A stretch of 16,490 nt of DNA from positions 1 through 16,490 of the forward strand of contig CAWJKT010000012.1 of assembly GCA_963843375.1 (NCBI GenBank), read 5' to 3'. The DNA is from an uncultured Pseudomonadota bacterium. Its GTDB lineage: Bacteria > Oederibacteriota > Muellerivitia > Muellerivitales > Muellerivitaceae. Positions 1 through 16,414 of the stretch are shown piece by piece. A program made the translations under genes and the position numbers. The notes beneath the pieces were generated by a model. That model made no database searches and had not been told where the DNA came from. It saw only the letters and a program-made list of their open reading frames with translations. Numbering within the stretch: the first letter of the stretch is position 1; every line of letters begins with the position of its first letter.

Positions 1-292
1 AATAGATGTCCAAAAAAGGGAGGCGAGATCCATTGTTCCTCCCCTTAACCGGGATTGTGAGGCATGCGGAAAAGGGTTTGTTGAGAAGCCGAATTCAAGA
101 ATTGAATGCGCCACTTGATTCAAAAATGGCTGTTTCCTAAGAATTATCAAATAGGTTTCGAAAACCATGGAAATCAGCGCCGCAAATCGTTTGCAAAGAG
201 AGTATCCTTTCGTGGAGTTAGAACGTCTAAATAAAAGTAGCAATTGATTATCATTGATAAATGGATGGGTAAATACCCAAGGATGGTGTTAC

Positions 293-4236: not shown

Positions 4237-4979
4237 TGAAAAAAATTCAGTTACTTTCGGTTTTGGCGGTCACTTTTTATGGGTTTGCATCGATGGTGTT
4301 TTGCGAAACTTCAACGCCAATGTACACCCCCACCCCGGAGGGCTTAAGGAATAGCGGGTGGAATATGCCATTGTCCCAATTCAGGGCTCTGAAAAAATCC
4401 AAGGTGACCTTTTGGGTCGATCCAATGGAAGCCCGGGTTTTGGATTATCTTTTGATGGGTTCCCACGAAGTGGACAAGGATGACCCGGCGCGCTTTCCGG
4501 GGGTTTCGGTGCAAATTCCGGAAAAGGACTCGGCCATTTACGTTTTCTACCGCGGAAATCTCTGTATGGATGCGAGAGAACTAACTTTGGCCGACCTGGA
4601 GGGCGAGAGGGGGAAGCTGCGGTTCCAATATGGATCGCCGAAAGAGGAATTTCATTCTATTGGCCCGGATTTCAGCGATTCTTACGGGAAGATCAGAACG
4701 TTCTATCATTTTGAGGCTTATGACGAAAACCCCAATACCATTGTGGATCTGGTCCGGGTCACGGGTTATTACGAAAACCAACTCTATTACGACAGGAGTT
4801 ACGATATGGTTGCTTCCAGCATGGGGGAGTTGATGAAGGTTTATTTAATCCGCTTTTCAAAAAGTTACCTTCAAGAGGATAACGCTTATAGCGACTGGTT
4901 AGCGGATAAGAAAAATCCGCCCGCAACAGAAACTCCAGTGGATTATTTCCAAAGCCTCAAACGTAGTATTGAACGTTGA
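4233..4979 (+). CDS. Secreted/periplasmic hypothetical protein
   Basis: AAGGAG SD at 4220-4225 and ATG 4233 (MMKKIQLLSVLAVTFYGFASMVFC, signal-like). Short T/P-rich segments at both ends. Confidence 0.8.
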   Translation: MMKKIQLLSVLAVTFYGFASMVFCETSTPMYTPTPEGLRNSGWNMPLSQFRALKKSKVTFWVDPMEARVLDYLLMGSHEVDKDDPARFPGVSVQIPEKDSAIYVFYRGNLCMDARELTLADLEGERGKLRFQYGSPKEEFHSIGPDFSDSYGKIRTFYHFEAYDENPNTIVDLVRVTGYYENQLYYDRSYDMVASSMGELMKVYLIRFSKSYLQEDNAYSDWLADKKNPPATETPVDYFQSLKRSIER

Positions 4980-5252
4980 TGGAGAGCGGGGCTCTTAGCG
5001 GGATGTTGAAAAAGTCTGTTTTCCATACTTTTTCTCGTTATTAAACAATACATGGATTAAAAAAATTAAATGTCTCGTTCCATCCCGCAGCTGTCGAACA
5101 GGTGATGAGAAGGTAATTTTTATCGCCCGGTTATGTTTTCCACGGAATTAACTTGCCCTATTTACTGTGCAGAAGCATGGTAGGTCCAAGAATTGGCCTT
5201 GCAGCCTATTCCAGGTCCAATTCTTAACATCATGAATTTTTAGGAGGACACC

Positions 5253-6623
5253 ATGGGGAACCAAGACAGTCGACAGCTCGACCAGCCGGTATTCGCCCAG
5301 CCTGAACCAACCGAAGACCCGACGACTTTTCGGGTGAAGCATGCGTCCGACGCGGCGGCTTACAAAACCATCGATCAATTGAACGCCCAACACAAAATCA
5401 ATCCCACGCCCTTTCCCGCGCCGCGAACCACCAATGAAAGCCCCGACGAACCCATCCTCACTTTGGCGGACGTGCTGGGCGGCAACAGCTTGATGATCAA
5501 CAAGATCACCGCCCAAGACCAAATCGTGTTCCATGCTACGGGCGATTGCGGCAGTACGGTGGGACCCAAGACCGAAAGCGAGGTCGCGGACAAGATGGTG
5601 GCGGATTTCCAGGAAACTGACCCCGCTCAGGTCCCGCAGTTTAATTTTCTCTTAGGGGACGTCGTCTACAGCTTCGGGGAAGCCCAGTATTATTATGACC
5701 AATTTTACGAACCCTACCGGGAATATCCGGCCCCCATTCTTGCGGCGGCGGGGAACCATGACGGCATGGTGGCCCCCCAAACGGGCGTGGAAAGCCTTGC
5801 CGCCTTCTTGCGGAATTTTTGTTCGGAAAATTTCGTCATTACACCCGAAGCAGGAGGCCTTTCCCGCACCGCTCAAATCCAGCCCGGAGTCTTCTTTACA
5901 TTTGACGCCCCCTTCGTGCGCATCCTGGCGATCTACAGCAACACCCTGGAGGACCCCGGGGTCATTGCCGATGGAGGACCCTATAGCGGCTTAGGAACCT
6001 CTCAATTGGATTTTCTGACCGCCGCCCTCAGCCGAGCGAAAAGCGAAAAGTACCAGGGAGCGTTGTTGATCGCTTCCCACCATCCCTCCTATACCATCGC
6101 CAAACACGGATGGAGCACCCTCATGACATCGCAAATCGACGCCATCTGTAACAAGGTTGGGCTATGGCCCCACGCTTTCCTAGCGGGCCATGCTCATAAT
6201 TATCAGCGATTTACCCGTACCCGTTCGAACAACACCGAAATTCCCTACATCGTCTGTGGAAATGGTGGACATGGGCTTCAACGCTTGTCCAAGGTAGGAA
6301 CTCCTCTTCGCACCCCACAAGTTATACAGAACGCTTCGGGCTCCAATGACCAAGTGGTTTTCGAGAATTATGACGACGGCGATTACGGCTATTTACGGGT
6401 CATCGTGACAGAGAGCCAATTGCGCATTGAGTATCACCCGGCAAGTGACGGAGAAGCCGCGAAGACCCCGGATGATTCTGTAACGGTTGATCTCCAAAAG
6501 CGGATCCTCACCCAATACACCGCTCCGGATCTCGGCCGACCACAGGTCGCCCAAGCAATCCGGGCCTTCCGGAACCAGACCAAACCCTCAAGGTCGGTGG
6601 GTAAGAGGAGAAAAAGGAAATAA
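5253..6623 (+). CDS. Metallophosphoesterase (calcineurin-like, purple acid phosphatase-type motifs)
   Basis: AGGAGG SD. Motifs GDCG, GDVVY, GNHD, SHHP and GHAH in canonical order. No obvious signal peptide. Basic tail KRRKRK. Confidence 0.92.
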   Translation: MGNQDSRQLDQPVFAQPEPTEDPTTFRVKHASDAAAYKTIDQLNAQHKINPTPFPAPRTTNESPDEPILTLADVLGGNSLMINKITAQDQIVFHATGDCGSTVGPKTESEVADKMVADFQETDPAQVPQFNFLLGDVVYSFGEAQYYYDQFYEPYREYPAPILAAAGNHDGMVAPQTGVESLAAFLRNFCSENFVITPEAGGLSRTAQIQPGVFFTFDAPFVRILAIYSNTLEDPGVIADGGPYSGLGTSQLDFLTAALSRAKSEKYQGALLIASHHPSYTIAKHGWSTLMTSQIDAICNKVGLWPHAFLAGHAHNYQRFTRTRSNNTEIPYIVCGNGGHGLQRLSKVGTPLRTPQVIQNASGSNDQVVFENYDDGDYGYLRVIVTESQLRIEYHPASDGEAAKTPDDSVTVDLQKRILTQYTAPDLGRPQVAQAIRAFRNQTKPSRSVGKRRKRK

Positions 6624-7058
6624 CAAAAACACTAACTTTACCTGTGCCGGCCCCGTAGATTAAATGGCTTTGGTTCCAGGCGGACTGGCTTTTTAGAGAG
6701 GGGAGCGTCAATATGGCCCGTTTCAATCTTTTCCTCCGCATTATCCAAGCCCGGCGGACGCCCCTTCGTCAACCCATACAGGCTGGTTCATGTGGTTTGG
6801 GATCTTTCTGGTTTTATCCGAGAATTTGGCCCCTTCGACAAAAGGCCTGACAATCCAGCCCCTCCGGACCCTGGTTTCCGTGGTGGCAAAGCTCTTGCCA
6901 GCCCGCAATGAGCTTTTCGAACCCCTTTAAGAGTCTCCAGCCAATACCCAGTTTTTGGCAAATGGTCTAAAATAATGCCTGGATTCCAGCCTGAAATTGG
7001 GAGTTATCCATTTAGGCCCTTTTGAGAGTAATAAAAGCCCTTTCCTCAATTAAAAAAT

Positions 7059-7088
7059 GGAATAAAGTGCTTATTCAAAAGGCTAATC
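7059..7088 (+). promoter_or_regulatory. Candidate ECF-type autoregulatory promoter (GGAATAAA-14-GGCTAATC)
   Basis: GGAAT -35-like box right before the sigma RBS. The same TGGAATAAA recurs at 11262-11270. Confidence 0.35.
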
Positions 7089-7101
7089 TCTAGGAGGATG
7101 T

Positions 7102-7665
7102 TTGGAAGACCGGGAGTTGGTTGAAAAAATACTCCAGGGGGACGAGGGGGCCAAGGCTCAATTCTATACCCAATACCGGGAACGCCTTTACAAGGATTGC
7201 GTTTTTCTGTTGGGCTACCGAGACCCGGAAGCTGAAGATTTGGTGCAGGAAGCCTTCCTGATCGCCTTTAAAAAACTTCCTTCTTTCGAATTTCGCTCTT
7301 CGCTGGGCACCTGGCTGACGCAGATTGGAATTTACCTTTGCTACAACCGCTACCGCAACCGGGCCCGGATGGTGTTGAAGGAAGAAGAAAACCTGGAAGG
7401 CCTTTTGAGAACGAAAGCCATGCAAGGAGAAATCCAAAAATCCCGGGAGGAGGACAAACAACTCAAGCTGCGGCTAATTGACCGGGGTCTGGAGAAGATA
7501 GGGCCCGAATGCCGGGAGATTGTAGTTTTAAGGGATAAAGAGGAAAAAACTTATATTGAAATCGGGAAGGCGCTGAAAATCCCCCTGGGTACGGTGATGT
7601 CCAGGCTGTCGCGTTGCAAAAAGGCACTGAAAGTTTTGATCGAACAAATGCTTCGAGAGGGATGA
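7102..7665 (+). CDS. ECF (sigma-70 group 4) RNA polymerase sigma factor
   Basis: AGGAGG SD and TTG start. Region 2 AEDLVQEAF...FEFRSSLGTWL and region 4 TYIEIGKALKIPLGTVMSRLSR. 187 aa. Confidence 0.95.
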   Translation: MEDRELVEKILQGDEGAKAQFYTQYRERLYKDCVFLLGYRDPEAEDLVQEAFLIAFKKLPSFEFRSSLGTWLTQIGIYLCYNRYRNRARMVLKEEENLEGLLRTKAMQGEIQKSREEDKQLKLRLIDRGLEKIGPECREIVVLRDKEEKTYIEIGKALKIPLGTVMSRLSRCKKALKVLIEQMLREG

Positions 7666-7666
7666 G

Positions 7667-8350
7667 ATGGCGGATTTGATAACTGAATTTTTCGAACGGG
7701 AGTTGACTGAAACGGAAGCCGACTCCCTGGGCGACCTCTTGAGGGAATCGCCTGACGAAACCCTTCGCTTCGAAGGCCTGCTGGAAGGCCATTACCTTGC
7801 GACGGGGTTGCCGTCCCCCCAATTGCCCGCCTCGCTCCTCAAGCTTCCCCCTTCCCCAGGGGGATGGGGTGGCGCGGGTGGTTTGAAGCTTTTGTTCCTT
7901 TTGGGCGCGGCCGGGTTGGGTTTGCTTGCATGGAAATTCCGCCCCATAACTTCTTTCTTTCAACCTGCCGCTATTCCGGCCTCCGCGACTCTTTCCCAGT
8001 CACCGGTCTTTTCAACGGCTCCTAAGCCGGTCAATACCTTACCCCAGCCAGCCAATGCGGCTAAATCTGAACCGGTTCAACCGCAGGAAGCGGGCCCTGT
8101 AGCGGAGGGGGAAGAATTAAGCGTGGAAGTTGGAACCCAAGAAAAAACCCTTATAACCGTGCGGGTACTCAATCACGAGGGCAAGGAAATCTGCGATATT
8201 TATACCGGTTTCGTCCAACCAGGCCAATGGTCCTTCCGGTGGAATGGCAACCTTGCCGATGGCATGCCGGCTCCGGCGGGGGCCTATCAAATTGACGTTC
8301 AGGCGGGCGCCCTGCATCAAAGCAAAGACATCCAAATCAAGCCGAATTGA
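7667..8350 (+). CDS. Putative membrane anti-sigma factor with C-terminal FlgD-Ig / T9SS-CTD-like domain
   Basis: Starts 1 nt after the sigma stop. Short acidic helical N-domain, single TM (LLFLLGAAGLGLLAW, about 7889-7933), Pro-rich linker, then VRVLNHEGKEI...PGQWSFRWNG...GMPAPAGAYQIDV. Confidence 0.8.
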   Translation: MADLITEFFERELTETEADSLGDLLRESPDETLRFEGLLEGHYLATGLPSPQLPASLLKLPPSPGGWGGAGGLKLLFLLGAAGLGLLAWKFRPITSFFQPAAIPASATLSQSPVFSTAPKPVNTLPQPANAAKSEPVQPQEAGPVAEGEELSVEVGTQEKTLITVRVLNHEGKEICDIYTGFVQPGQWSFRWNGNLADGMPAPAGAYQIDVQAGALHQSKDIQIKPN

Positions 8351-8417
8351 TTTTGGGTTTGGTGACATTCCGTTGGGAAGCCATAATAAGAATATTCCCC
8401 GGGAGGTCTTTGGCGCG

Positions 8418-9851
8418 ATGGGTTCAAAACGTTTCAAACTAATCTTCGTCCTTTTACTCCTAACGGCACCTTCCATTCTCCGGGCACAGGCCAATGGTGA
8501 TGGCCTCAAGGGCACCTATTTCATTAACACCAACCTCACCAGCCCGGCCGTGACCGTTGTAGATCCCTTAGTCAGCTATCGATGGTTCGGCTGTCCTCCT
8601 CAGCCGGGAATGTCGGGGACCTCCTTTTCGGTTCAATGGCTGGGTCAGGTGGATTCTTCCTATAGTGAACCCTATACCTTCACGGTTGACGTTAACGGCG
8701 GCGTGAGCGTGATCGTCAACGGCCAAGTCCTTATCAGCCAATGGACCGATTTTCCCCCGCCCGTCCGCGGCTTTTCGGGGGTGATCAGCCTGACGGCTGG
8801 CCTCAAGGTTCCCATTGAAGTGGACTATTTTACCAACGGCGCCAATCCCACTTCCGACCTGATTCAACTGGCTTGGCAAAGCCCTTCCCAAGGATATGAA
8901 TATGTTCCAAGGGAGTATCTCTTTTCGGGGGCGGCGCTGAACCCCACCCCCACGCCCCAAACGACCATGGCCTGCCAGTCGAGCGTTAGCGTGGACGGGG
9001 TCCTGAGCGAATGGGCCTGGACCACGCCTACGGGCTGGAACACCGTTTCCCGGCCTGTGCTGGGCAACGTCTACGGGACCACGGCGGTCTTCAAAACACT
9101 GTGGGACACATCCAACCTCTATCTCGGTGTGACAGTCACTGACAGCCAGCTCACCAACAACGGTGTCTCGGCCGTATGGGAAAACTCGGCGGTGGAGCTT
9201 TACCTGGACACCACCGACTCCAAGAGCATCACGGTCGTCAGCACCGATTTCCAATACTTCTTCGGGTGGAACGACACGGTGGCCGTCGAGGCCCTAGGAA
9301 GGACCGCTGGAGTGAGCCTGCGCACAACGACCATTTCCACCGGCTATGTTGTGGAAGCCTCCATCCCCTGGACAACCTTGGGCTTAGGGAGTCCGAGCCC
9401 CGGGATGGTGTTGGGCTTGGACGTAGGCGTGGACGTGAATCATAACGGGGGCAATTGCCGGGATGGTCAGTTAATGTGGAACGGCGGGTCGGACGATTAC
9501 GCGAACGCCAGCGATTACGGCCAACTGACCCTGACAAGCGCTTGTCCCACCCCCGTCGCAACACCGCCCGCCCCGACGAGCCTGCCTTATGTTTATCCCA
9601 ATCCCACCAGCGGTCCGGTGGTGACTTTCGTTTACACCATGGCCCAGGCGGGAACGGTTTCCATCAAGGTTTGGAACGCCTGGGGAAACCTGGCCGCCAC
9701 AATCAATGATTCCAAATCACCCGGATTGGCTTCCAGTACTTTGGACATCAGCTCTTTCGCTCCCGGTCATTATTTTTATCGAATTGAGCTCGACTATGAT
9801 TCGGGACAAAAAGACGAGTTTAAAACTCAGGTCCTGGCTATCAAGAAATGA
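8418..9851 (+). CDS. Secreted non-catalytic PA14 + CBM9-like (DOMON sugar-binding) protein with T9SS type-A-like CTD
   Basis: GGAGG SD, ATG 8418 and signal peptide. PA14 (GLKGTYF...FSVQWLG...YTF...W...SPSQ). CBM9-like (VDGVLSEW, WDTSNLYLGVTVTD, VELYLD, GYVVEASIPW). CTD (YPNP...IKVWNAWGNL...PGHYFYRI...LAIKK). Confidence 0.88.
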   Translation: MGSKRFKLIFVLLLLTAPSILRAQANGDGLKGTYFINTNLTSPAVTVVDPLVSYRWFGCPPQPGMSGTSFSVQWLGQVDSSYSEPYTFTVDVNGGVSVIVNGQVLISQWTDFPPPVRGFSGVISLTAGLKVPIEVDYFTNGANPTSDLIQLAWQSPSQGYEYVPREYLFSGAALNPTPTPQTTMACQSSVSVDGVLSEWAWTTPTGWNTVSRPVLGNVYGTTAVFKTLWDTSNLYLGVTVTDSQLTNNGVSAVWENSAVELYLDTTDSKSITVVSTDFQYFFGWNDTVAVEALGRTAGVSLRTTTISTGYVVEASIPWTTLGLGSPSPGMVLGLDVGVDVNHNGGNCRDGQLMWNGGSDDYANASDYGQLTLTSACPTPVATPPAPTSLPYVYPNPTSGPVVTFVYTMAQAGTVSIKVWNAWGNLAATINDSKSPGLASSTLDISSFAPGHYFYRIELDYDSGQKDEFKTQVLAIKK

Positions 9852-11657: not shown

Positions 11658-11809
11658 CTTTAAAAAGAGTCTGCATTTAAATTAGGGGGATGACTAAGAG
11701 TATTGTTTGGGAACCCTTCCAACTGCGGTCACCTTTTGCCCCATTGGTTTGTGAATAGCAACAGGACTTTGGTTGCACCCAAGGTCCCAAAAAATTGGAG
11801 GTGGCTCAG

Positions 11810-14800
11810 ATGACCCTGAAAAAATTGAAGGCTTTAACCCTGATCCTCGGTTTTGGTTGCTTCGTCTCATCCGCTTGGGGCCAAACGGTCACCGTTAATC
11901 CCGGTACCACCTATCAAACGATCTCGGGTTTCGGTGCTTCCAGTCAATGGGACAATTCATTCTCGTCCTCTCTCGCTAACAATTTTTGGGCTGACGATTC
12001 CAATCAGCCCCCCGCCAGCCAGGTCAACGGCAATGTCGGGCTTTCCATTCTCCGACTCGGGATTGACGACTCCGGTAACGCCAATTGGGGCTCGCAATGC
12101 GCATTCGCCACCCAGGCCCTGGGGATCAATTCTAACATCCGGGTCTTCGGCTCCGAGTGGAGCCCGCCGGCGAAATGGAAGAACAACAACAGCGTCGATG
12201 GCAACAACACCGGCAACGATAACGGCAATCCGGGCTCCAACACCAACCAACTCAACCCCTCGAACTATGCGGCCTATGCCGCCTACCAGACGAGCTTTGT
12301 CACGGCTTGCAAGAATACCTATGGGTTCACGCCTTACGCCATCTCTGTCCAGAATGAGCCGGATTACGATCCCAGTTACGATGCCTGTCTTTGGTCACCT
12401 TCGGCATTCGACACCTATATCGGGACCTATCTGGGCCCGGACCTTGAGGCCGCTGGCTTCGGCACCTCGATCATCATGATGCCCGAGTCCTTCGCGGACA
12501 ATTTGAACCTTTCCGCCACCACCATGGGCGACCCGACCGCGGCGGCTTTCGTGAGGTGCATCGGCATGCATTTGTACGGTGGCGGCCCTAACACGGTTCC
12601 GACCAGCTACTCGACTACGGCCGGCCACACCGTTGAGAGCTGGGAAACTGAAATCTCGGAAAAAACAAGCGACAACAACATCGACAGCGGGATCTACTAC
12701 GCCGATTTGCTGCACAACTGCATTGTGGATCATAACTTCAACGCCTTTTGCTACTGGTGGCTGGTTAACATTAACTCTGACGACGAGGGGCTTTGTACAA
12801 GCGCAGGCACTCCTACTCCTCGCCTCTACTGTATTGGTAATTTCAGCAAATTCATTCGCCCGGGTTTCGTGCGCATCGGCTGTACCGAATCGCCCTCCGC
12901 CGGGGTTTCGGTATCGGCTTATTACGGCTCATCCACGGGTAAGGTCGTGGTTGTGGCCATTAACAGCAATACTTCCAGCTACAGCCTACCTGTCAGTTAT
13001 ACCGGCTTTACCGCCACCACGGTTTATCCCTGGCTCACGGACTCCAGTAGCAATCTAGTCCAGCAGACGGCAGTGAATGTCAGCAACGGAAGCTTTACCT
13101 ATACCCTGCCGGGCCAAAGCGTTGTGAGTTTCGTTACCACCATGAACAGTGGATCACCCGTGCCAACCGTTACACCTACCCTGAGTCCCACACCGGTCGT
13201 TGCCTCCACCTGGAGGGTCAATGCGGGCGGGCCCACCTATGTCAGCGCCTCCTCGGGGTTCACCTGGCTGGCGGATGAGAATTACAACGGCGGATCCACC
13301 ATCGCCGAGGGAACCACCATTGCCGGTACCAACGACCCCACCCTTTATGATACCCAGCGTTACGGATCGAGCTTTAGCTATTCCTTCAACGTGCCTGCCG
13401 GCAGCTACCAGATCTCCTTGTTGTTTGCCGAGACCTATTCGGGTGATTTCGCCAAGGGTGACCGTGTTTTCAACGTAGCCATTGACGGGACCACGGTGCT
13501 GTCGAACTTTGATGTTTACGGCCAAGTGGGCGGAAACACTGCGGATGTACAGGTGTTCAACAACATTTCGCCCTCAAGCGGCGTCATCACCATTTCATTT
13601 ACCGGTACCTCCAGCACGGATACCAACGCGATGGTGGACGCCATCCAAATCATTCCCATGCCTGCCGTAACGGCGACGGCCACCAGTACGGTGACGCGGA
13701 CCAATACTTTGACGGCCACCAGCACGGCTTCTTCCACCCCCACTTCCACCGCGACGGCCAGCCCGACCCGTACTTCAACCGTCACCCCATCTAACACGCC
13801 GATACCCCCGACTTTAACAACCACTTCGACGGCCACCTCTACACCGACCAAGACCAATAGTCCTGTGCCGCCTACGGCCACGAATACAACCACGGCGACT
13901 TGGACCAGCACTCCGGTTCCCCCGACACCCACCAATACACCCTTGCCGCCGACAGCAACGAATACTAATAATCCGGTGCCTCCGACGGCGACCAATACTC
14001 CGGTTCCGCCCACCCCGACCAGCACGAGTACGCCGGTGCCTCCTACCCCCACCAGCACCAACAGCCCGGTGCCACCAACACTGACCAATACTCCGCTACT
14101 TCCGACCGCAACCAATACTCCGGCTCCACCCACCGCGACCGGCACGAGTACGCCAGTGCCTCCCACGGCCACTAGCACCAACAGTCCCGTACCGCCAACG
14201 GTAACCAATACCTTGACGGCTACGCTATCAAGTACTTCTACCAACACGCGGGTGCCGCCAACGATGACGCCAACACCGGTTCCTCCGACCGCAACGAGGA
14301 CGAACACGCCCATTCCGCCAACCTCTACTCCTACGCCGGTTCCACCGACGGAAACCTTTACGCTGACGCCTCTTGCGCCTACTTCCACTCCTACGGAAGT
14401 CATCTCAAGTTCGAACTTCACAGTTCAACTGCTGAGCGGCGTGACCAGCGACACGACCAACAGTCCCCATCCCTTTATCCAAGTGGTGAATACGGGAACG
14501 GGGCCCCTGGATCTGAACAACGTGGAAGTGCGCTACTGGTTCAATTGCGATTGCACGACCCAATCCCTGCAGGTTTGGGTGGACTGGGCGGGATTACTTC
14601 CCGCCGGAACCTCTGTTACGGGAGACATCGCAGCGACAATCGTTCCCACCAGTTTAGGCGGCCAGACGGATTACGTGAGCTACAAGTTCAACGGGAACTT
14701 GGTGCTGCAACCCGGGCAAATGATCCAAATCCAAAGCCGCTTCAATAAGAGCGACTGGAGCAACATGAACCAGGCCAACGATTGGAGTTTTGCGCCCTAT

Positions 14801-15250
14801 ACGAGTTATACCAATGCGCCTCAGGTGACGGGATATCTGGGTGGAACGCTGGTTTGGGGCGAACAGCCGGTGGCAGCCCCGGCAGCGCTTTCGGTCGCCA
14901 ACGTCTTATCCTTCCCGAATCCCTCCACCGGGACTGGAGCGACCCTCTCCTTTAGCTTGAACGGTTCGAGTTCGGGCGCGAGCGGGTCGGTTTTGAGTGA
15001 AAGCGACCCGGCGTTGGTGGACCCCAACGCCCAGATCAACCTGAGCATCTATAGCCTGGCTTTTCGATTGATCTGGACCCAGACATTGACCGGGGGAGGA
15101 TACGGGACCACGGGGAACCATGATTACTACTGGAACGAACGGGACTTTCAGGGCGCCGGTTTAGCCAACGGTGTTTACGTTTTGAAGGTTACCGTGGAGT
15201 CCAAAGGCCAGAAAAGCTCGGCCATAGGGAAGATTTTGATCTTGAAGTAA
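11810..15250 (+). CDS. Modular glycoside hydrolase: signal, GH30 (xylanase-like), malectin/CBM57, Pro/Thr linker, CBM3, T9SS type-A-like CTD
   Basis: GGAGGT SD and ATG 11810. GH30: QTISGFGAS, WSPP, VQNEPD (acid/base Glu 12356-12358), WETE (nucleophile Glu 12650-12652), FSKFIRPG. Malectin about 13211-13657 (RVNAGG, LFAE, RVFNV). CBM3 about 14413-14869 (NTG..LDL..VRYWF, DWSNMNQANDWSF, LVWGEQP). CTD FPNP...NGVY...GKILILK. Confidence 0.93.
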   Translation: MTLKKLKALTLILGFGCFVSSAWGQTVTVNPGTTYQTISGFGASSQWDNSFSSSLANNFWADDSNQPPASQVNGNVGLSILRLGIDDSGNANWGSQCAFATQALGINSNIRVFGSEWSPPAKWKNNNSVDGNNTGNDNGNPGSNTNQLNPSNYAAYAAYQTSFVTACKNTYGFTPYAISVQNEPDYDPSYDACLWSPSAFDTYIGTYLGPDLEAAGFGTSIIMMPESFADNLNLSATTMGDPTAAAFVRCIGMHLYGGGPNTVPTSYSTTAGHTVESWETEISEKTSDNNIDSGIYYADLLHNCIVDHNFNAFCYWWLVNINSDDEGLCTSAGTPTPRLYCIGNFSKFIRPGFVRIGCTESPSAGVSVSAYYGSSTGKVVVVAINSNTSSYSLPVSYTGFTATTVYPWLTDSSSNLVQQTAVNVSNGSFTYTLPGQSVVSFVTTMNSGSPVPTVTPTLSPTPVVASTWRVNAGGPTYVSASSGFTWLADENYNGGSTIAEGTTIAGTNDPTLYDTQRYGSSFSYSFNVPAGSYQISLLFAETYSGDFAKGDRVFNVAIDGTTVLSNFDVYGQVGGNTADVQVFNNISPSSGVITISFTGTSSTDTNAMVDAIQIIPMPAVTATATSTVTRTNTLTATSTASSTPTSTATASPTRTSTVTPSNTPIPPTLTTTSTATSTPTKTNSPVPPTATNTTTATWTSTPVPPTPTNTPLPPTATNTNNPVPPTATNTPVPPTPTSTSTPVPPTPTSTNSPVPPTLTNTPLLPTATNTPAPPTATGTSTPVPPTATSTNSPVPPTVTNTLTATLSSTSTNTRVPPTMTPTPVPPTATRTNTPIPPTSTPTPVPPTETFTLTPLAPTSTPTEVISSSNFTVQLLSGVTSDTTNSPHPFIQVVNTGTGPLDLNNVEVRYWFNCDCTTQSLQVWVDWAGLLPAGTSVTGDIAATIVPTSLGGQTDYVSYKFNGNLVLQPGQMIQIQSRFNKSDWSNMNQANDWSFAPYTSYTNAPQVTGYLGGTLVWGEQPVAAPAALSVANVLSFPNPSTGTGATLSFSLNGSSSGASGSVLSESDPALVDPNAQINLSIYSLAFRLIWTQTLTGGGYGTTGNHDYYWNERDFQGAGLANGVYVLKVTVESKGQKSSAIGKILILK
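13661..14400 (+). repeat. Pro/Thr-rich linker with degenerate PVPPTxTxT(xT) units
   Basis: About 245 aa containing repeated 9-11 aa units (PVPPTATNT, PVPPTPTSTST) with varied synonymous codons. Confidence 0.9.
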
Positions 15251-15338
15251 AATTTAAGTAAATGGGATGGAGTACCATCTGAAATTCCAATGAATGAAAT
15301 TGCCGGGACTTAAATAAAAAAAGTTTTTGAAATCAGAC

Positions 15339-15367
15339 TTGACATTTATTTAAGATCTCGGTAATCT
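15339..15367 (+). promoter_or_regulatory. Sigma70 promoter TTGACA-17-TAATCT
   Basis: Perfect -35 at 15339-15344, 17-nt spacer, -10 at 15362-15367 and A-tract upstream. The TSS would fall just before aptamer 1. Confidence 0.8.
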
Positions 15368-15377
15368 TCAGGAATCA

Positions 15378-15445
15378 AACGCGGGCTTTAAGTTTCCAAC
15401 TTGCTCCGGCGTTGTTCGAAAGAACTAAACAGTGAGCTAAAGCGG
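15378..15445 (+). promoter_or_regulatory. SAM-II/SAM-V-like riboswitch aptamer, copy 1
   Basis: P1 AACGC/GCGUU, loop GGCUUU...CUUGCUC, GNRA hairpin GUUC-GAAA-GAAC and 3' GAGCUAAAG. This gives the UUU / UUGC / GCUAAA signature of SAM-II H-type pseudoknots. Confidence 0.7.
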
Positions 15446-15467
15446 TACAAGGTTAAGAGACTTCTCC

Positions 15468-15508
15468 AAACCCGATCCGCTCCAAAAGCGGACCGGGTTT
15501 TTTGTTTT
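15468..15508 (+). terminator. Intrinsic terminator (expression platform of aptamer 1)
   Basis: AAACCCG-a-TCCGCT ccaaa AGCGGA-c-CGGGTTT followed by TTTGTTTT. Confidence 0.88.
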
Positions 15509-15547
15509 AGGGCAAAAAAACCGTAAAACAATGGTTTTTATAACAGT

Positions 15548-15675
15548 ACGGTGTGGCTTTAATTGGCGAAAGGCTTGAACAAGGCTCTTTCGGCGATTCC
15601 CGAGAGGGAATCGACCAACTTGCCCCGACCGTTTTTTTCCCGTAAGGGGAAGGAAGAACTGGGGGCTAAAGCGGC
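15548..15675 (+). promoter_or_regulatory. SAM-II-like (long-loop) riboswitch aptamer, copy 2
   Basis: P1 ACGGU/ACCGU, GGCUUUAA, inserted hairpins, CCAACUUGCCCC, GUAA-capped hairpin and 3' GGGGCUAAAGCGG. Confidence 0.68.
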
Positions 15676-15692
15676 ACCTGATTTCCGTCTGG

Positions 15693-15734
15693 AAACCCGA
15701 GCCGCCCGAAAAGCGGTCTCGGGTTTTTTTGTTT
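15693..15734 (+). terminator. Intrinsic terminator (expression platform of aptamer 2)
   Basis: AAACCCGAG-CCGC ccgaaaa GCGG-t-CTCGGGTTT followed by TTTTGTTT, about 40 nt before the Prx start. Confidence 0.88.
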
Positions 15735-15772
15735 CACGGACCGCTAAGAATTAAATTTTTAGGAGGACTGTC

Positions 15773-16414
15773 ATGGCTTTAAGACTAGGGGATATAGCCC
15801 CGGATTTTACGCAGGATTCCAGCGAAGGTAAAATTCATTTTTACGATTGGGCCGGTAAGTCCTGGGTGGTGCTGTTTTCCCACCCGGCGGATTTCACGCC
15901 CGTTTGCACCACCGAATTGGGGGCCACGGCAAAATTGAAACCCGAATTCGAGAAAAGGGGCGTGAAGGTGGTTGCTCTTTCCGTGGATACCGTGGAAAAC
16001 CATAAGGGTTGGATTCCGGATATCAACGAGACCCAGGGCACCAAGGTCAATTTCCCAATTTTGGCGGATCACGACCATGAAGTGTCGCTTTTGTACGATT
16101 TGATCCATCCGAACTCGCTGGCCAACGCCACGGTCCGGTCGGTTTTTATCATCGACGCCGATAAGAAAATCCGGGCCACTATCACCTATCCGGCCAGCAC
16201 GGGCCGCAATTTCAACGAGATTTTGCGGGTCATCGATTCCTTGCAGTTGACTGACAACTACAAGGTGGCTACCCCGGTGAATTGGAAGGACGGGGAAGAC
16301 GTGGTTATCGTTCCAGCCTTAAAGGACGAGAACGAGTTGCGCGAGCGGTTCCCGAAGGGATTCAAGGTGGTTCGGCCTTACCTGCGCCTAACCGCCCAGC
16401 CGAACAAGAAGTAA
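15773..16414 (+). CDS. lsfA: 1-Cys peroxiredoxin (Prx6 subfamily, LsfA-like)
   Basis: AGGAGG SD. FSHPADFTPVCTTELG active-site motif, YPASTGRNFNEILRVIDSLQL and single Cys. The whole sequence closely resembles Pseudomonas LsfA as recalled. Confidence 0.93.
   Translation: MALRLGDIAPDFTQDSSEGKIHFYDWAGKSWVVLFSHPADFTPVCTTELGATAKLKPEFEKRGVKVVALSVDTVENHKGWIPDINETQGTKVNFPILADHDHEVSLLYDLIHPNSLANATVRSVFIIDADKKIRATITYPASTGRNFNEILRVIDSLQLTDNYKVATPVNWKDGEDVVIVPALKDENELRERFPKGFKVVRPYLRLTAQPNKK

Follow-up and report, generated by a model that had tools for sequence, protein, structure and literature searches.

The SAM-II riboswitches, which sense S-adenosylmethionine (SAM), are known from Alphaproteobacteria and Bacteroidetes. 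Here, we analyzed 16,490 nt of contig CAWJKT010000012.1 (assembly GCA_963843375.1, from an uncultured bacterium; this whole stretch is called the window), in which the leader (15339-15772) of a 1-Cys peroxiredoxin gene contains two aptamer-plus-terminator units in series (15378-15506 and 15548-15733). The initial annotation of this DNA had described the units as SAM-II/SAM-V-like riboswitches, had considered their target, mechanism and variant core (GCUUU for GAUUU) unusual, and had taken both classes to act mostly on translation. The last premise is wrong for SAM-II, because most SAM-II riboswitches act on transcription, as stated in the available part of PMC6061858. Tandem SAM-II riboswitches are also in print, with 44 examples, some of them with a terminator each (available part of PMC9481103, Sherlock et al. 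2022), so neither termination (PMC6061858) nor a tandem with separate terminators (PMC9481103) sets this locus apart.

The other close relative is SAM-V. In its crystal structure (6FZ0), as given in the available part of PMC6061858, a 4-bp P1 is accompanied by a third strand (G5-G11), a turn (A12-C14) and a P3 hairpin, P2 spans U20:A48 to C24:G43, and a 2-bp P2a joins nucleotides 14-15 and the 3′ tail. U47 is bulged and pairs with the SAM adenine, the U20:A48.U9 triple faces the sulfonium, A50 opposite A18 holds the amino-acid end, G21 stacks on the ligand, and A40-A42 lie in the P1 minor groove (PMC6061858).

We assign a probability of ∼0.77 to the reading that the leader comprises two riboswitches, independent of each other and belonging to a divergent SAM-II-type family, placed in series for OFF control of the peroxiredoxin. 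Our verdict on class is a divergent, uncatalogued SAM-II-type lineage with SAM-V-like features. By analogy with the two described classes, SAM is probably the ligand.

A covarying pseudoknot family in uncultured bacteria

Both units contain the words quoted in the initial annotation, GGCTTTAA at 15384 and 15555, CCAACTTGCYCC at 15396 and 15615, and GCTAAAGCGG at 15436 and 15665. CCAACTTGCYCC is matched twice in the window against 0.00 expected (0 of 200 shuffles contained two) and GCTAAAGCGG twice against 0.03 expected; GGCTTTAA, with five matches against 0.89 expected, is weak alone. The P1 pairs, the pseudoknot stems GCUC/GAGC and GCCC/GGGC, the GNRA hairpins and the complementarity between tail and terminator read as had been described.

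A two-word pattern scan of the 99 genomes of the phylum gave dozens of exact matches, several per genome and clustered. Twenty such regions were fetched, and the copies extracted from them by script amounted to 113 distinct sequences. The alignment used below, A1, holds 94 copies, namely the second copy of the window and the 96 of ≤125 nt, from which three long ones (L042:2516-2635, L082:649-764 and L111:397-502) were left out. The consensus opens with P1-5′, G(A) and GGCUUUAA, continues through either a short linker (2-6 nt) or an insertion of 36-60 nt, and then has CCAACUU and GCCCC; after a G come P1-3′, a hairpin in some copies, AACA, GGG-N-GC, U, AAA and GCGG.

A covariance model built in this analysis (R1, whose E-values are rough) detects ∼140 copies in 35 of the 99 genomes, and in 28 of the 30 genomes of the window's own family, with up to 12 copies per genome ahead of many different operons. 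In the genome of the window it finds three copies, the two described here and a divergent one (C9:147277-147346). An exact-pattern scan, with one genome per species, returned 70 stretches, most of them in metagenome-assembled genomes titled candidate division FCPU426 or Elusimicrobia/Elusimicrobiota; Firestonebacteria, Desantisbacteria, Coatesbacteria, Acidobacteria and Proteobacteria are minor labels among the matches. A match in Loktanella (L123) had no SAM-II match in the Rfam scan and was treated as chance. The motif is a widespread family and not a local duplication.

The initial annotation noted that the two copies covary, and compensatory changes in P1 and in the pseudoknot are borne out by the 94 related copies. 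In P1, pair 7-90 is CG in 48 copies, AU in 40, UA in three and UG in one, pair 8-89 is GC in 53 and CG in 38, and pair 10-87 is CG in 73, UA in 17 and UG in three. P1 has four covarying pairs and is also recovered by RNAalifold. In 91 of the 94 copies, GCYCC in the loop forms five pairs with the tail, with at most one bulge. The P1 covariation score is 0.221 compared with 0.106 when shuffled (0 of 500 shuffles as high; best at slide 0), and for P2, 1000 shuffles of the partners average 73.6 such copies and never exceed 79, compared with the 91 observed, although kinship among the sequences inflates such statistics. The stronger argument for the pseudoknot is that several distinct classes are compensated: GCCCC:GGG(N)GC, GCUCC:G(Y)GAGC and GCCUC:GAGGC, with a fourth compensation, GUCCC:GGGAC, in a relative of the divergent third copy. 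Covariation thus supports an H-type pseudoknot in which the P1 loop pairs with the 3′ tail.

A candidate P2a, CC:GG (columns 74-75 with 150-151), is CG in 91 copies and UG in three at one pair and CG in all 94 at the other, with no two-sided change. A longer P2a was rejected, because the flanking columns 72-73 and 152-153 pair inconsistently.

Ligand-contact positions, expression platform and regulon

Projected onto SAM-V, every nucleotide that contacts SAM has a nearly invariant counterpart in A1, except A18, which is mostly C (Table 1). The first U of the UUU run is U in 85 copies and G in nine. The run stands where the third strand of a triplex would, and faces an invariant UU (columns 79-80) and AA (columns 145-146). 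For comparison, Rfam consensus lines were taken from sub-threshold matches elsewhere in the genome. That of RF01726 reads GaGG-AaaGAUUUGA-CUG-AUUGCAA-CCuC ... AUGCUAAAgCAG, and that of RF01826 reads GGCAuUUGAAC-u-GUAUUGUGC-GCC ... UAAAGCACUAAAAAGGAG.

The new motif shares with SAM-V the GGC-(A)-UUU third strand, the UUG descending strand, the bulged U followed by AAA, a P3 hairpin in L3, adenines 5′ of P2, and a candidate 2-bp P2a of the turn with the 3′ tail. It differs in that the copies of the window would use terminators whereas SAM-V uses the ribosome-binding site, and it has a longer G+C-rich P2, mostly C at the A18 counterpart, and no RF01826 match. With SAM-II (RF00521, SAM_alpha; RF01726, SAM-II long loop) it shares the H-type pseudoknot, tandem use, sulfur/methionine genes downstream, and the order of elements (P1 / G-x-UUU-R-A / (C)AAYUUGC / P1 / L3 / GC-U-AAAG). 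Both also have a one-nucleotide bulge in lower P2 and a tail, AAAGCG, that complements the 5′ side of the next intrinsic terminator. In contrast to SAM-II, the new motif has GGC rather than GA before UUU, CC inserted before AACUUGC, a lower P2 of CCC:GGG rather than GG:CC, and a hairpin in L3, where SAM-II has an A-rich strand. In some copies the turn is enlarged by an insertion of 36-60 nt made of two hairpins, and the hosts are uncultured lineages labelled FCPU426 or Elusimicrobia. The branch joins SAM-II traits (tail, terminator logic, bulged P2) and SAM-V traits (GGC-UUU third strand, P3 hairpin), and this mixture helps to show how SAM-II and SAM-V relate.

In a reciprocal comparison, marine loci were fetched by a SAM-V consensus word (114 stretches, 80 of them listed), and the 57 with full flanks were searched with R1 with filters off. 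R1 gave no match to the SAM-V elements in these 57 loci. In two of the 57 it matched an element on the same strand, immediately 5′ of SAM-V (14.7 and 13.0 bits; approximate E-values 0.002 and 0.007), the position taken by the SAM-II partner in published SAM-II/SAM-V tandems (PMC9481103, available part). The marine element has P1 AGCGC/GCGCU, then U-GAUUUAA-UU-CAACUUGC-GG-A, an A/U-rich L3 and the tail CC-U-GC-U-AAAGCG, followed by a terminator whose 5′ side, CGCUUUA, complements the tail. It shares with the motif of the window the words CAACUUGC and GCUAAAGCG, a single bulged base in lower P2, and the antiterminator logic.

The expression platform was analyzed in 128 distinct copies, taking 95 nt 3′ of each, and 114 of them have five or more consecutive U. 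When the 3′ arm of the terminator was removed, the minimum-energy fold paired at least three of the four GCGG tail bases with the 5′ arm in 103 of these 114. This recurrent pairing fits a SAM-dependent transcriptional OFF switch.

In the proposed mechanism, each aptamer would fold as an H-type pseudoknot in which a 4-5 bp P1 is joined by GGCUUUAA as a U-rich third strand. CCAACUUGCYCC, the descending strand, would run directly into P1, followed by the optional P3 hairpin and AACA, and the tail GGG-N-GC-U-AAA-GCGG would pair onto the P1 loop. By analogy with SAM-II and SAM-V, SAM may stack on the bulged U and be held by U:A.U triples and the third A. Its binding would lock the tail, with the terminal GG as P2a on the conserved CC. 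In the absence of SAM, the tail GCGG would pair with CCGC of the terminator 5′ arm, forming an antiterminator and allowing read-through; in its presence the tail would be sequestered in P2/P2a, and therefore no antiterminator would form, the terminator would win and transcription would stop. Transcription would have to get past both serial units to yield the peroxiredoxin, giving tighter and steeper repression when SAM (sulfur) is plentiful. The initial proposal of serial aptamers with their own terminators and OFF control of a sulfur-starvation peroxiredoxin thus gains support from the covariation, the invariant contacts, the recurrent antiterminators and a sulfur regulon.

Like the tandem SAM-II doublets of PMC9481103 (available part), the leader would contain two complete riboswitches of the same class in series, with their own terminators and an expected steeper dose response. 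Tandems are, however, the rule in the new family and the exception there, and only doublets appear in the available part of PMC9481103. Tandem sets of the new family are usually of two or three copies, and three consecutive copies occur in four of the 20 fetched loci. First and later copies belong to consistently different subtypes, a further difference from the SAM-II doublets. The idea that the subtypes sense different ligands is unsupported, since the ligand-contact columns are alike between first and later copies. Triple sets stand before sulfate-porin or TonB operons (L036 369-886; L039 2959-3499; and, on the reverse strand, L041 9821-10323 and L034 8724-9195). In some sets the last aptamer (for example, L036 808 and L037 4593) is followed by a hairpin with no clear U-run, and its platform may differ.

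The divergent third copy of the window's genome (L143 1501-1578; C9:147277-147354) scores 32.8 bits with R1 and is conserved in two relatives (G054 and G044). It ends in ACUAAAAAGGA (GGGACUAAAAAGGA), with GG inside the Shine-Dalgarno sequence and the start codon 8 nt on, as in SAM-V. The CC:GG pairing would also cover the Shine-Dalgarno sequence, and the copy looks like a translational, SAM-V-style version acting by Shine-Dalgarno sequestration. It precedes an orphan 163-aa open reading frame, beside an NT5C-type nucleotidase and a WYL-domain protein. The product of this frame matched no Pfam family, and its relatives are five unnamed proteins only.

The regulon was read from the genes directly behind aptamer sets in 21 loci. 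The 1-Cys peroxiredoxin is found in eight of them, always after a type-1 aptamer plus an insertion-bearing second aptamer, and two of these loci continue with a hexapeptide transferase or epimerase, then an SrpI-type encapsulin and a cysteine desulfurase. The other genes behind aptamers encode:
(i) Porin_O_P and a sulfate-type binding protein, with two permeases plus an ATPase (CysTWA);
(ii) MetY-CysK-MetX-MetW (metY-cysK-metX-metW);
(iii) an ExbB-ExbD-TonB-receptor set;
(iv) an AprA-like flavoprotein with ferredoxin;
(v) an NMT1-type binding protein with rhodanese;
(vi) a DsrE-like protein;
(vii) a nitroreductase/O-methyltransferase/RibBA/RibH set; and
(viii) family-less small proteins.
By gene content, the aptamer-associated genes are readable as a sulfur-scavenging regulon. 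The leaders thus stand 5′ of methionine, cysteine and sulfur genes and carry a predicted OFF-type platform, as expected of a SAM riboswitch. The initial annotation had proposed building a covariance model and inspecting the downstream genes; the outcome was the ∼140 copies and this sulfur-assimilation regulon. Separately, the SrpI-type (family 2A) encapsulin plus cysteine desulfurase continue a peroxiredoxin or MetY operon at L035 6048-9879 and L041 (reverse) 4499-9637, and in some relatives the encapsulin system would lie under the new riboswitch.

What is new is lineage and scale, with up to 12 uses per genome, routine doubling, and tripling in the four loci mentioned. New also are the genes it would govern, such as those for a peroxiredoxin, for TonB uptake and for an encapsulin operon; no SAM-riboswitch link to any of these was found in the literature searched. 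That search gave no link of SAM riboswitches to peroxiredoxin with sulfate or to SrpI, and none of SAM-II to Elusimicrobia. On this reading, 1-Cys peroxiredoxin, TonB-dependent uptake and SrpI-type encapsulin/cysteine desulfurase would be tied to sulfur through RNA and not through a CysB-like protein, and in a little-studied group of uncultured bacteria a riboswitch would guard a set of sulfur-scavenging genes. The routine double and triple tandems provide natural material on the sharpening of responses by serial riboswitches.

Alternative readings of the leader

The initial annotation had suggested a search with the Rfam models SAM_alpha, SAM-II_long_loops and SAM_V, and this search gave no match on the window at E≤10. 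At gathering level (RF00521, 36 bits; RF01726, 44 bits; RF01826, 41 bits) no Rfam family matched anywhere in the window. Neither SAM-I nor SAM-I/IV turned up in the window's own genome, which is 80% complete. The Rfam 15 models do not detect this SAM-II-type branch. A populous part of the SAM-II/SAM-V superfamily thus escapes the current models, so that annotation would miss the main sulfur regulon of these organisms.

Several observations weigh against two SAM-sensing riboswitches in the leader, in addition to the kinship that inflates the shuffle statistics. None of SAM-II, SAM-II long loop and SAM-V matched the leader, 20 diverse loci or the third copy at E≤10, scans that gave only noise such as TCV_H4, NsiR1 and trpB. 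The best match anywhere was RF01726 on a hairpin-less copy (L112), at 14.8 bits (E 0.7; threshold, 44 bits); that SAM-II long loop was the sole Rfam family to touch such a copy speaks for the SAM-II-type reading. Whole-genome searches with RF00521, RF01826 and RF01726 gave only sub-threshold matches elsewhere, among 150 scored of 628, 202 and 1698 candidates, respectively, and are not exhaustive. The counterpart of A18 (column 78) is C in 87 and A in seven of the 94 copies. The marine upstream element is a candidate SAM-II by its position. metK is present in all five near-complete relatives and adjoins no copy; in the window's own genome it was not found, which at 80% completeness is not evidence of absence. 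RNAalifold also gives GG13-14:CC84-85, a pairing that competes with the lower pseudoknot pairs and could be either an apo-state pairing or a Watson-Crick shadow of base triples. Finally, the third strand GCUUUA is perfectly complementary to the tail UAAAGC, with 94.5% of cells paired.

The C at the A18 counterpart, a regulon weighted to sulfate uptake and cysteine synthesis that does not include metK, and the failure of all three Rfam models would also suit the same SAM-II-type fold with another sulfur-status ligand, such as S-adenosylhomocysteine (SAH), methionine, or an intermediate of the cysteine or sulfate pathway. SAM-I variants that sense spermidine are a precedent for such a change of ligand (PMC10853860, available part), and here the fold would have been retuned to another metabolite by the A18-to-C change, the longer G+C-rich P2, P3 and the insertions. 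We consider this unlikely, because 93-94 of the 94 copies keep the SAM contacts of SAM-V, namely the bulged U, AAA, UU-G and all but the first of the third-strand U's (that first U in 85), metY, metX and metW are within the regulon, and the closest match of R1 is the element in the SAM-II position of the marine tandems, with CAACUUGC and GCUAAAGCG. If it were true, a single riboswitch class would serve as master sensor for a sulfur-starvation regulon (uptake of sulfate, TonB uptake, peroxiredoxin and SrpI-type encapsulin) that elsewhere is run by CysB-type proteins. It is highly improbable that the leader is instead an attenuator read by a protein or other trans-acting factor, with a convergent likeness to SAM-II. 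Protein-dependent systems also use terminator/antiterminator leaders, and the leader fails the curated riboswitch models, but the conserved nucleotides are exactly those that form the SAM pocket in SAM-II/SAM-V, a single genome can have as many as 12 copies ahead of many different operons, and the third copy appears to reuse the core with Shine-Dalgarno sequestration, as is typical of self-contained aptamers.

The complementarity of third strand and tail raises another question, that of the fold itself. GGCUUUA could form Watson-Crick pairs with the tail UAAAGC, replacing or alternating with the triplex, and the fold would then not be SAM-II-like. The words are perfect complements, and nearly all cells pair across the 94 copies. 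The pairing shows no compensation, however: 16 cells in column 15 and nine in column 16 break it while the tail is unchanged. At their ends, such a helix and the covarying helix 81-85:138-143 would also both have to abut P1 on a single uninterrupted tail strand, an arrangement that would be geometrically strained. Moreover, known SAM-II and SAM-V elements have a like near-complementarity and yet form a triplex (for SAM-V, available part of PMC6061858). A Watson-Crick third strand is thus very unlikely, and the reading as two serial SAM-II-type riboswitches is preferred.

Features of the leader and neighboring sequences

The coordinates of the features are collected in Table 1. Folding of 15438-15482 returned exactly antiterminator 1 (-13.9 kcal/mol), and folding of 15667-15706 returned antiterminator 2 (-13.0 kcal/mol). 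Terminator 1 coincides with inverted repeat I2 (93% complementary). Terminator 2 was missed by the simple terminator scan, which listed only terminator 1, and is seen in folds. A repeat search covers both terminators with a 46-nt repeat (15463-15508 and 15688-15733, 76% identical).

The 52-nt insertion of aptamer 2 consists of two variable hairpins, of which RNAalifold recovers the second only; no known motif was recognized in it. In other genera, too, an insertion-bearing second aptamer precedes peroxiredoxin genes; the insertion sits at the corresponding place there, its stems differ in sequence, and the loop word UGAACAAGG recurs.

Table 1. Features of the peroxiredoxin leader (nt of the window) and ligand-contact columns of alignment A1.
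Feature	Position	Strand	Detail
Promoter, putative	15339..15367	+	-35 TTGACA 15339-15344, 17-nt spacer, -10 TAATCT 15362-15367; predicted from sequence
Aptamer 1	15378..15445	+	R1 70.3 bits, E 1.5e-18; P1/P2 covariation over 94 copies
Aptamer 1 P1	15378-15382/15409-15413	+	
Aptamer 1 third strand	15384-15391	+	GGCUUUAA; mapped onto SAM-V
Aptamer 1 P2a-5′	15396-15397	+	CC
Aptamer 1 P2a-3′	15444-15445	+	GG
Aptamer 1 P2 descending strand	15400-15407	+	CUUGCUCC
Aptamer 1 P3 GNRA hairpin	15414-15425	+	GUUC-GAAA-GAAC
Aptamer 1 AACA	15428-15431		
Aptamer 1 P2 ascending strand	G15432; GAGC 15434-15437	+	U15433 bulge
Aptamer 1 bulged U and AAA	U15438; 15439-15441	+	then GC
Antiterminator 1	15441..15481	+	AGCGG 15441-15445 with CCGCU 15477-15481; inner hairpin 15451-15472
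Intrinsic terminator 1	15468..15506	+	arms 15468-15481/15487-15500; U-run from 15498; folds, scan
Aptamer 2	15548..15674	+	R1 45.4 bits, E 9.7e-11
Aptamer 2 P1	15548-15552/15628-15632	+	
Aptamer 2 third strand	15555-15562		GGCUUUAA
Aptamer 2 insertion	15563-15614	+	52 nt, two hairpins; in turn, third strand to CCAACUU
Aptamer 2 CCAACUU	15615-15621	+	
Aptamer 2 GCCCC	15622-15626	+	
Aptamer 2 P3 hairpin		+	CCC-GUAA-GGG, GUAA loop
Aptamer 2 tail	GGGGC 15662-15666; AAA 15668-15670; GG 15673-15674	+	bulged U15667; GC between AAA and GG
Antiterminator 2	15671..15705	+	GCGGC 15671-15675 with GCCGC 15701-15705; inner hairpin UUUCC...GGAAA
Intrinsic terminator 2	15693..15733	+	stem 15693-15726; U-run 15724-15730; inverted repeat I19, folds
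Peroxiredoxin ribosome-binding site	15761-15766	+	AGGAGG
1-Cys peroxiredoxin gene	15773..16414	+	213 aa; AhpC-TSA 4.6e-33, 1-cysPrx_C 1.3e-08
Third-strand UUU	columns 16-18		85, 94 and 93 of 94 are U
Descending-strand UU-G	columns 79-81		94 each of 94
AAC-A	columns 134-137		counterpart of the SAM-V A-stack before P2
Bulged U	column 144		94/94
AAA	columns 145-147		94 each of 94

In other genomes, each tandem set has a TTGACA-N17-TAnnnT block at the same distance 5′ of its first aptamer. From the putative promoter of Table 1, transcription would start a few bases 5′ of P1 of aptamer 1; this assignment is presumptive, because a consensus promoter scan picks another, overlapping site (15327-15356). 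The genes 5′ of the leader have no sulfur link (a secreted GH30/malectin/CBM3 protein, an extracytoplasmic function (ECF) sigma factor and others), and therefore the leader begins its own transcription unit. The secreted protein (1151 aa, 11795-15250) has GH30, malectin and CBM3 domains and long Pro/Thr-rich linkers, is unrelated to the riboswitch, and ends in a C-terminal tail typical of sorted surface proteins.

Within the peroxiredoxin gene, the third-strand word GGCTTTAAG recurs at 15775-15783, in codons 1-4 (ATGGCTTTAAGA). The N-terminus MALRLGD is conserved in homologues, and the recurrence may therefore be a coincidence. Beyond the gene, the end of the contig (16440-16490, ...AAGGAGGTGATCGGAAAGTTTAAACTTGAAAGTTTCACGG) looks like the start of a third aptamer. 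It aligns with the sequence before and into P1 of a third aptamer in a locus of the same genus (L037, reverse-strand 4593), which there comes after the peroxiredoxin gene and heads a porin/sulfate-binding protein/CysTWA operon.

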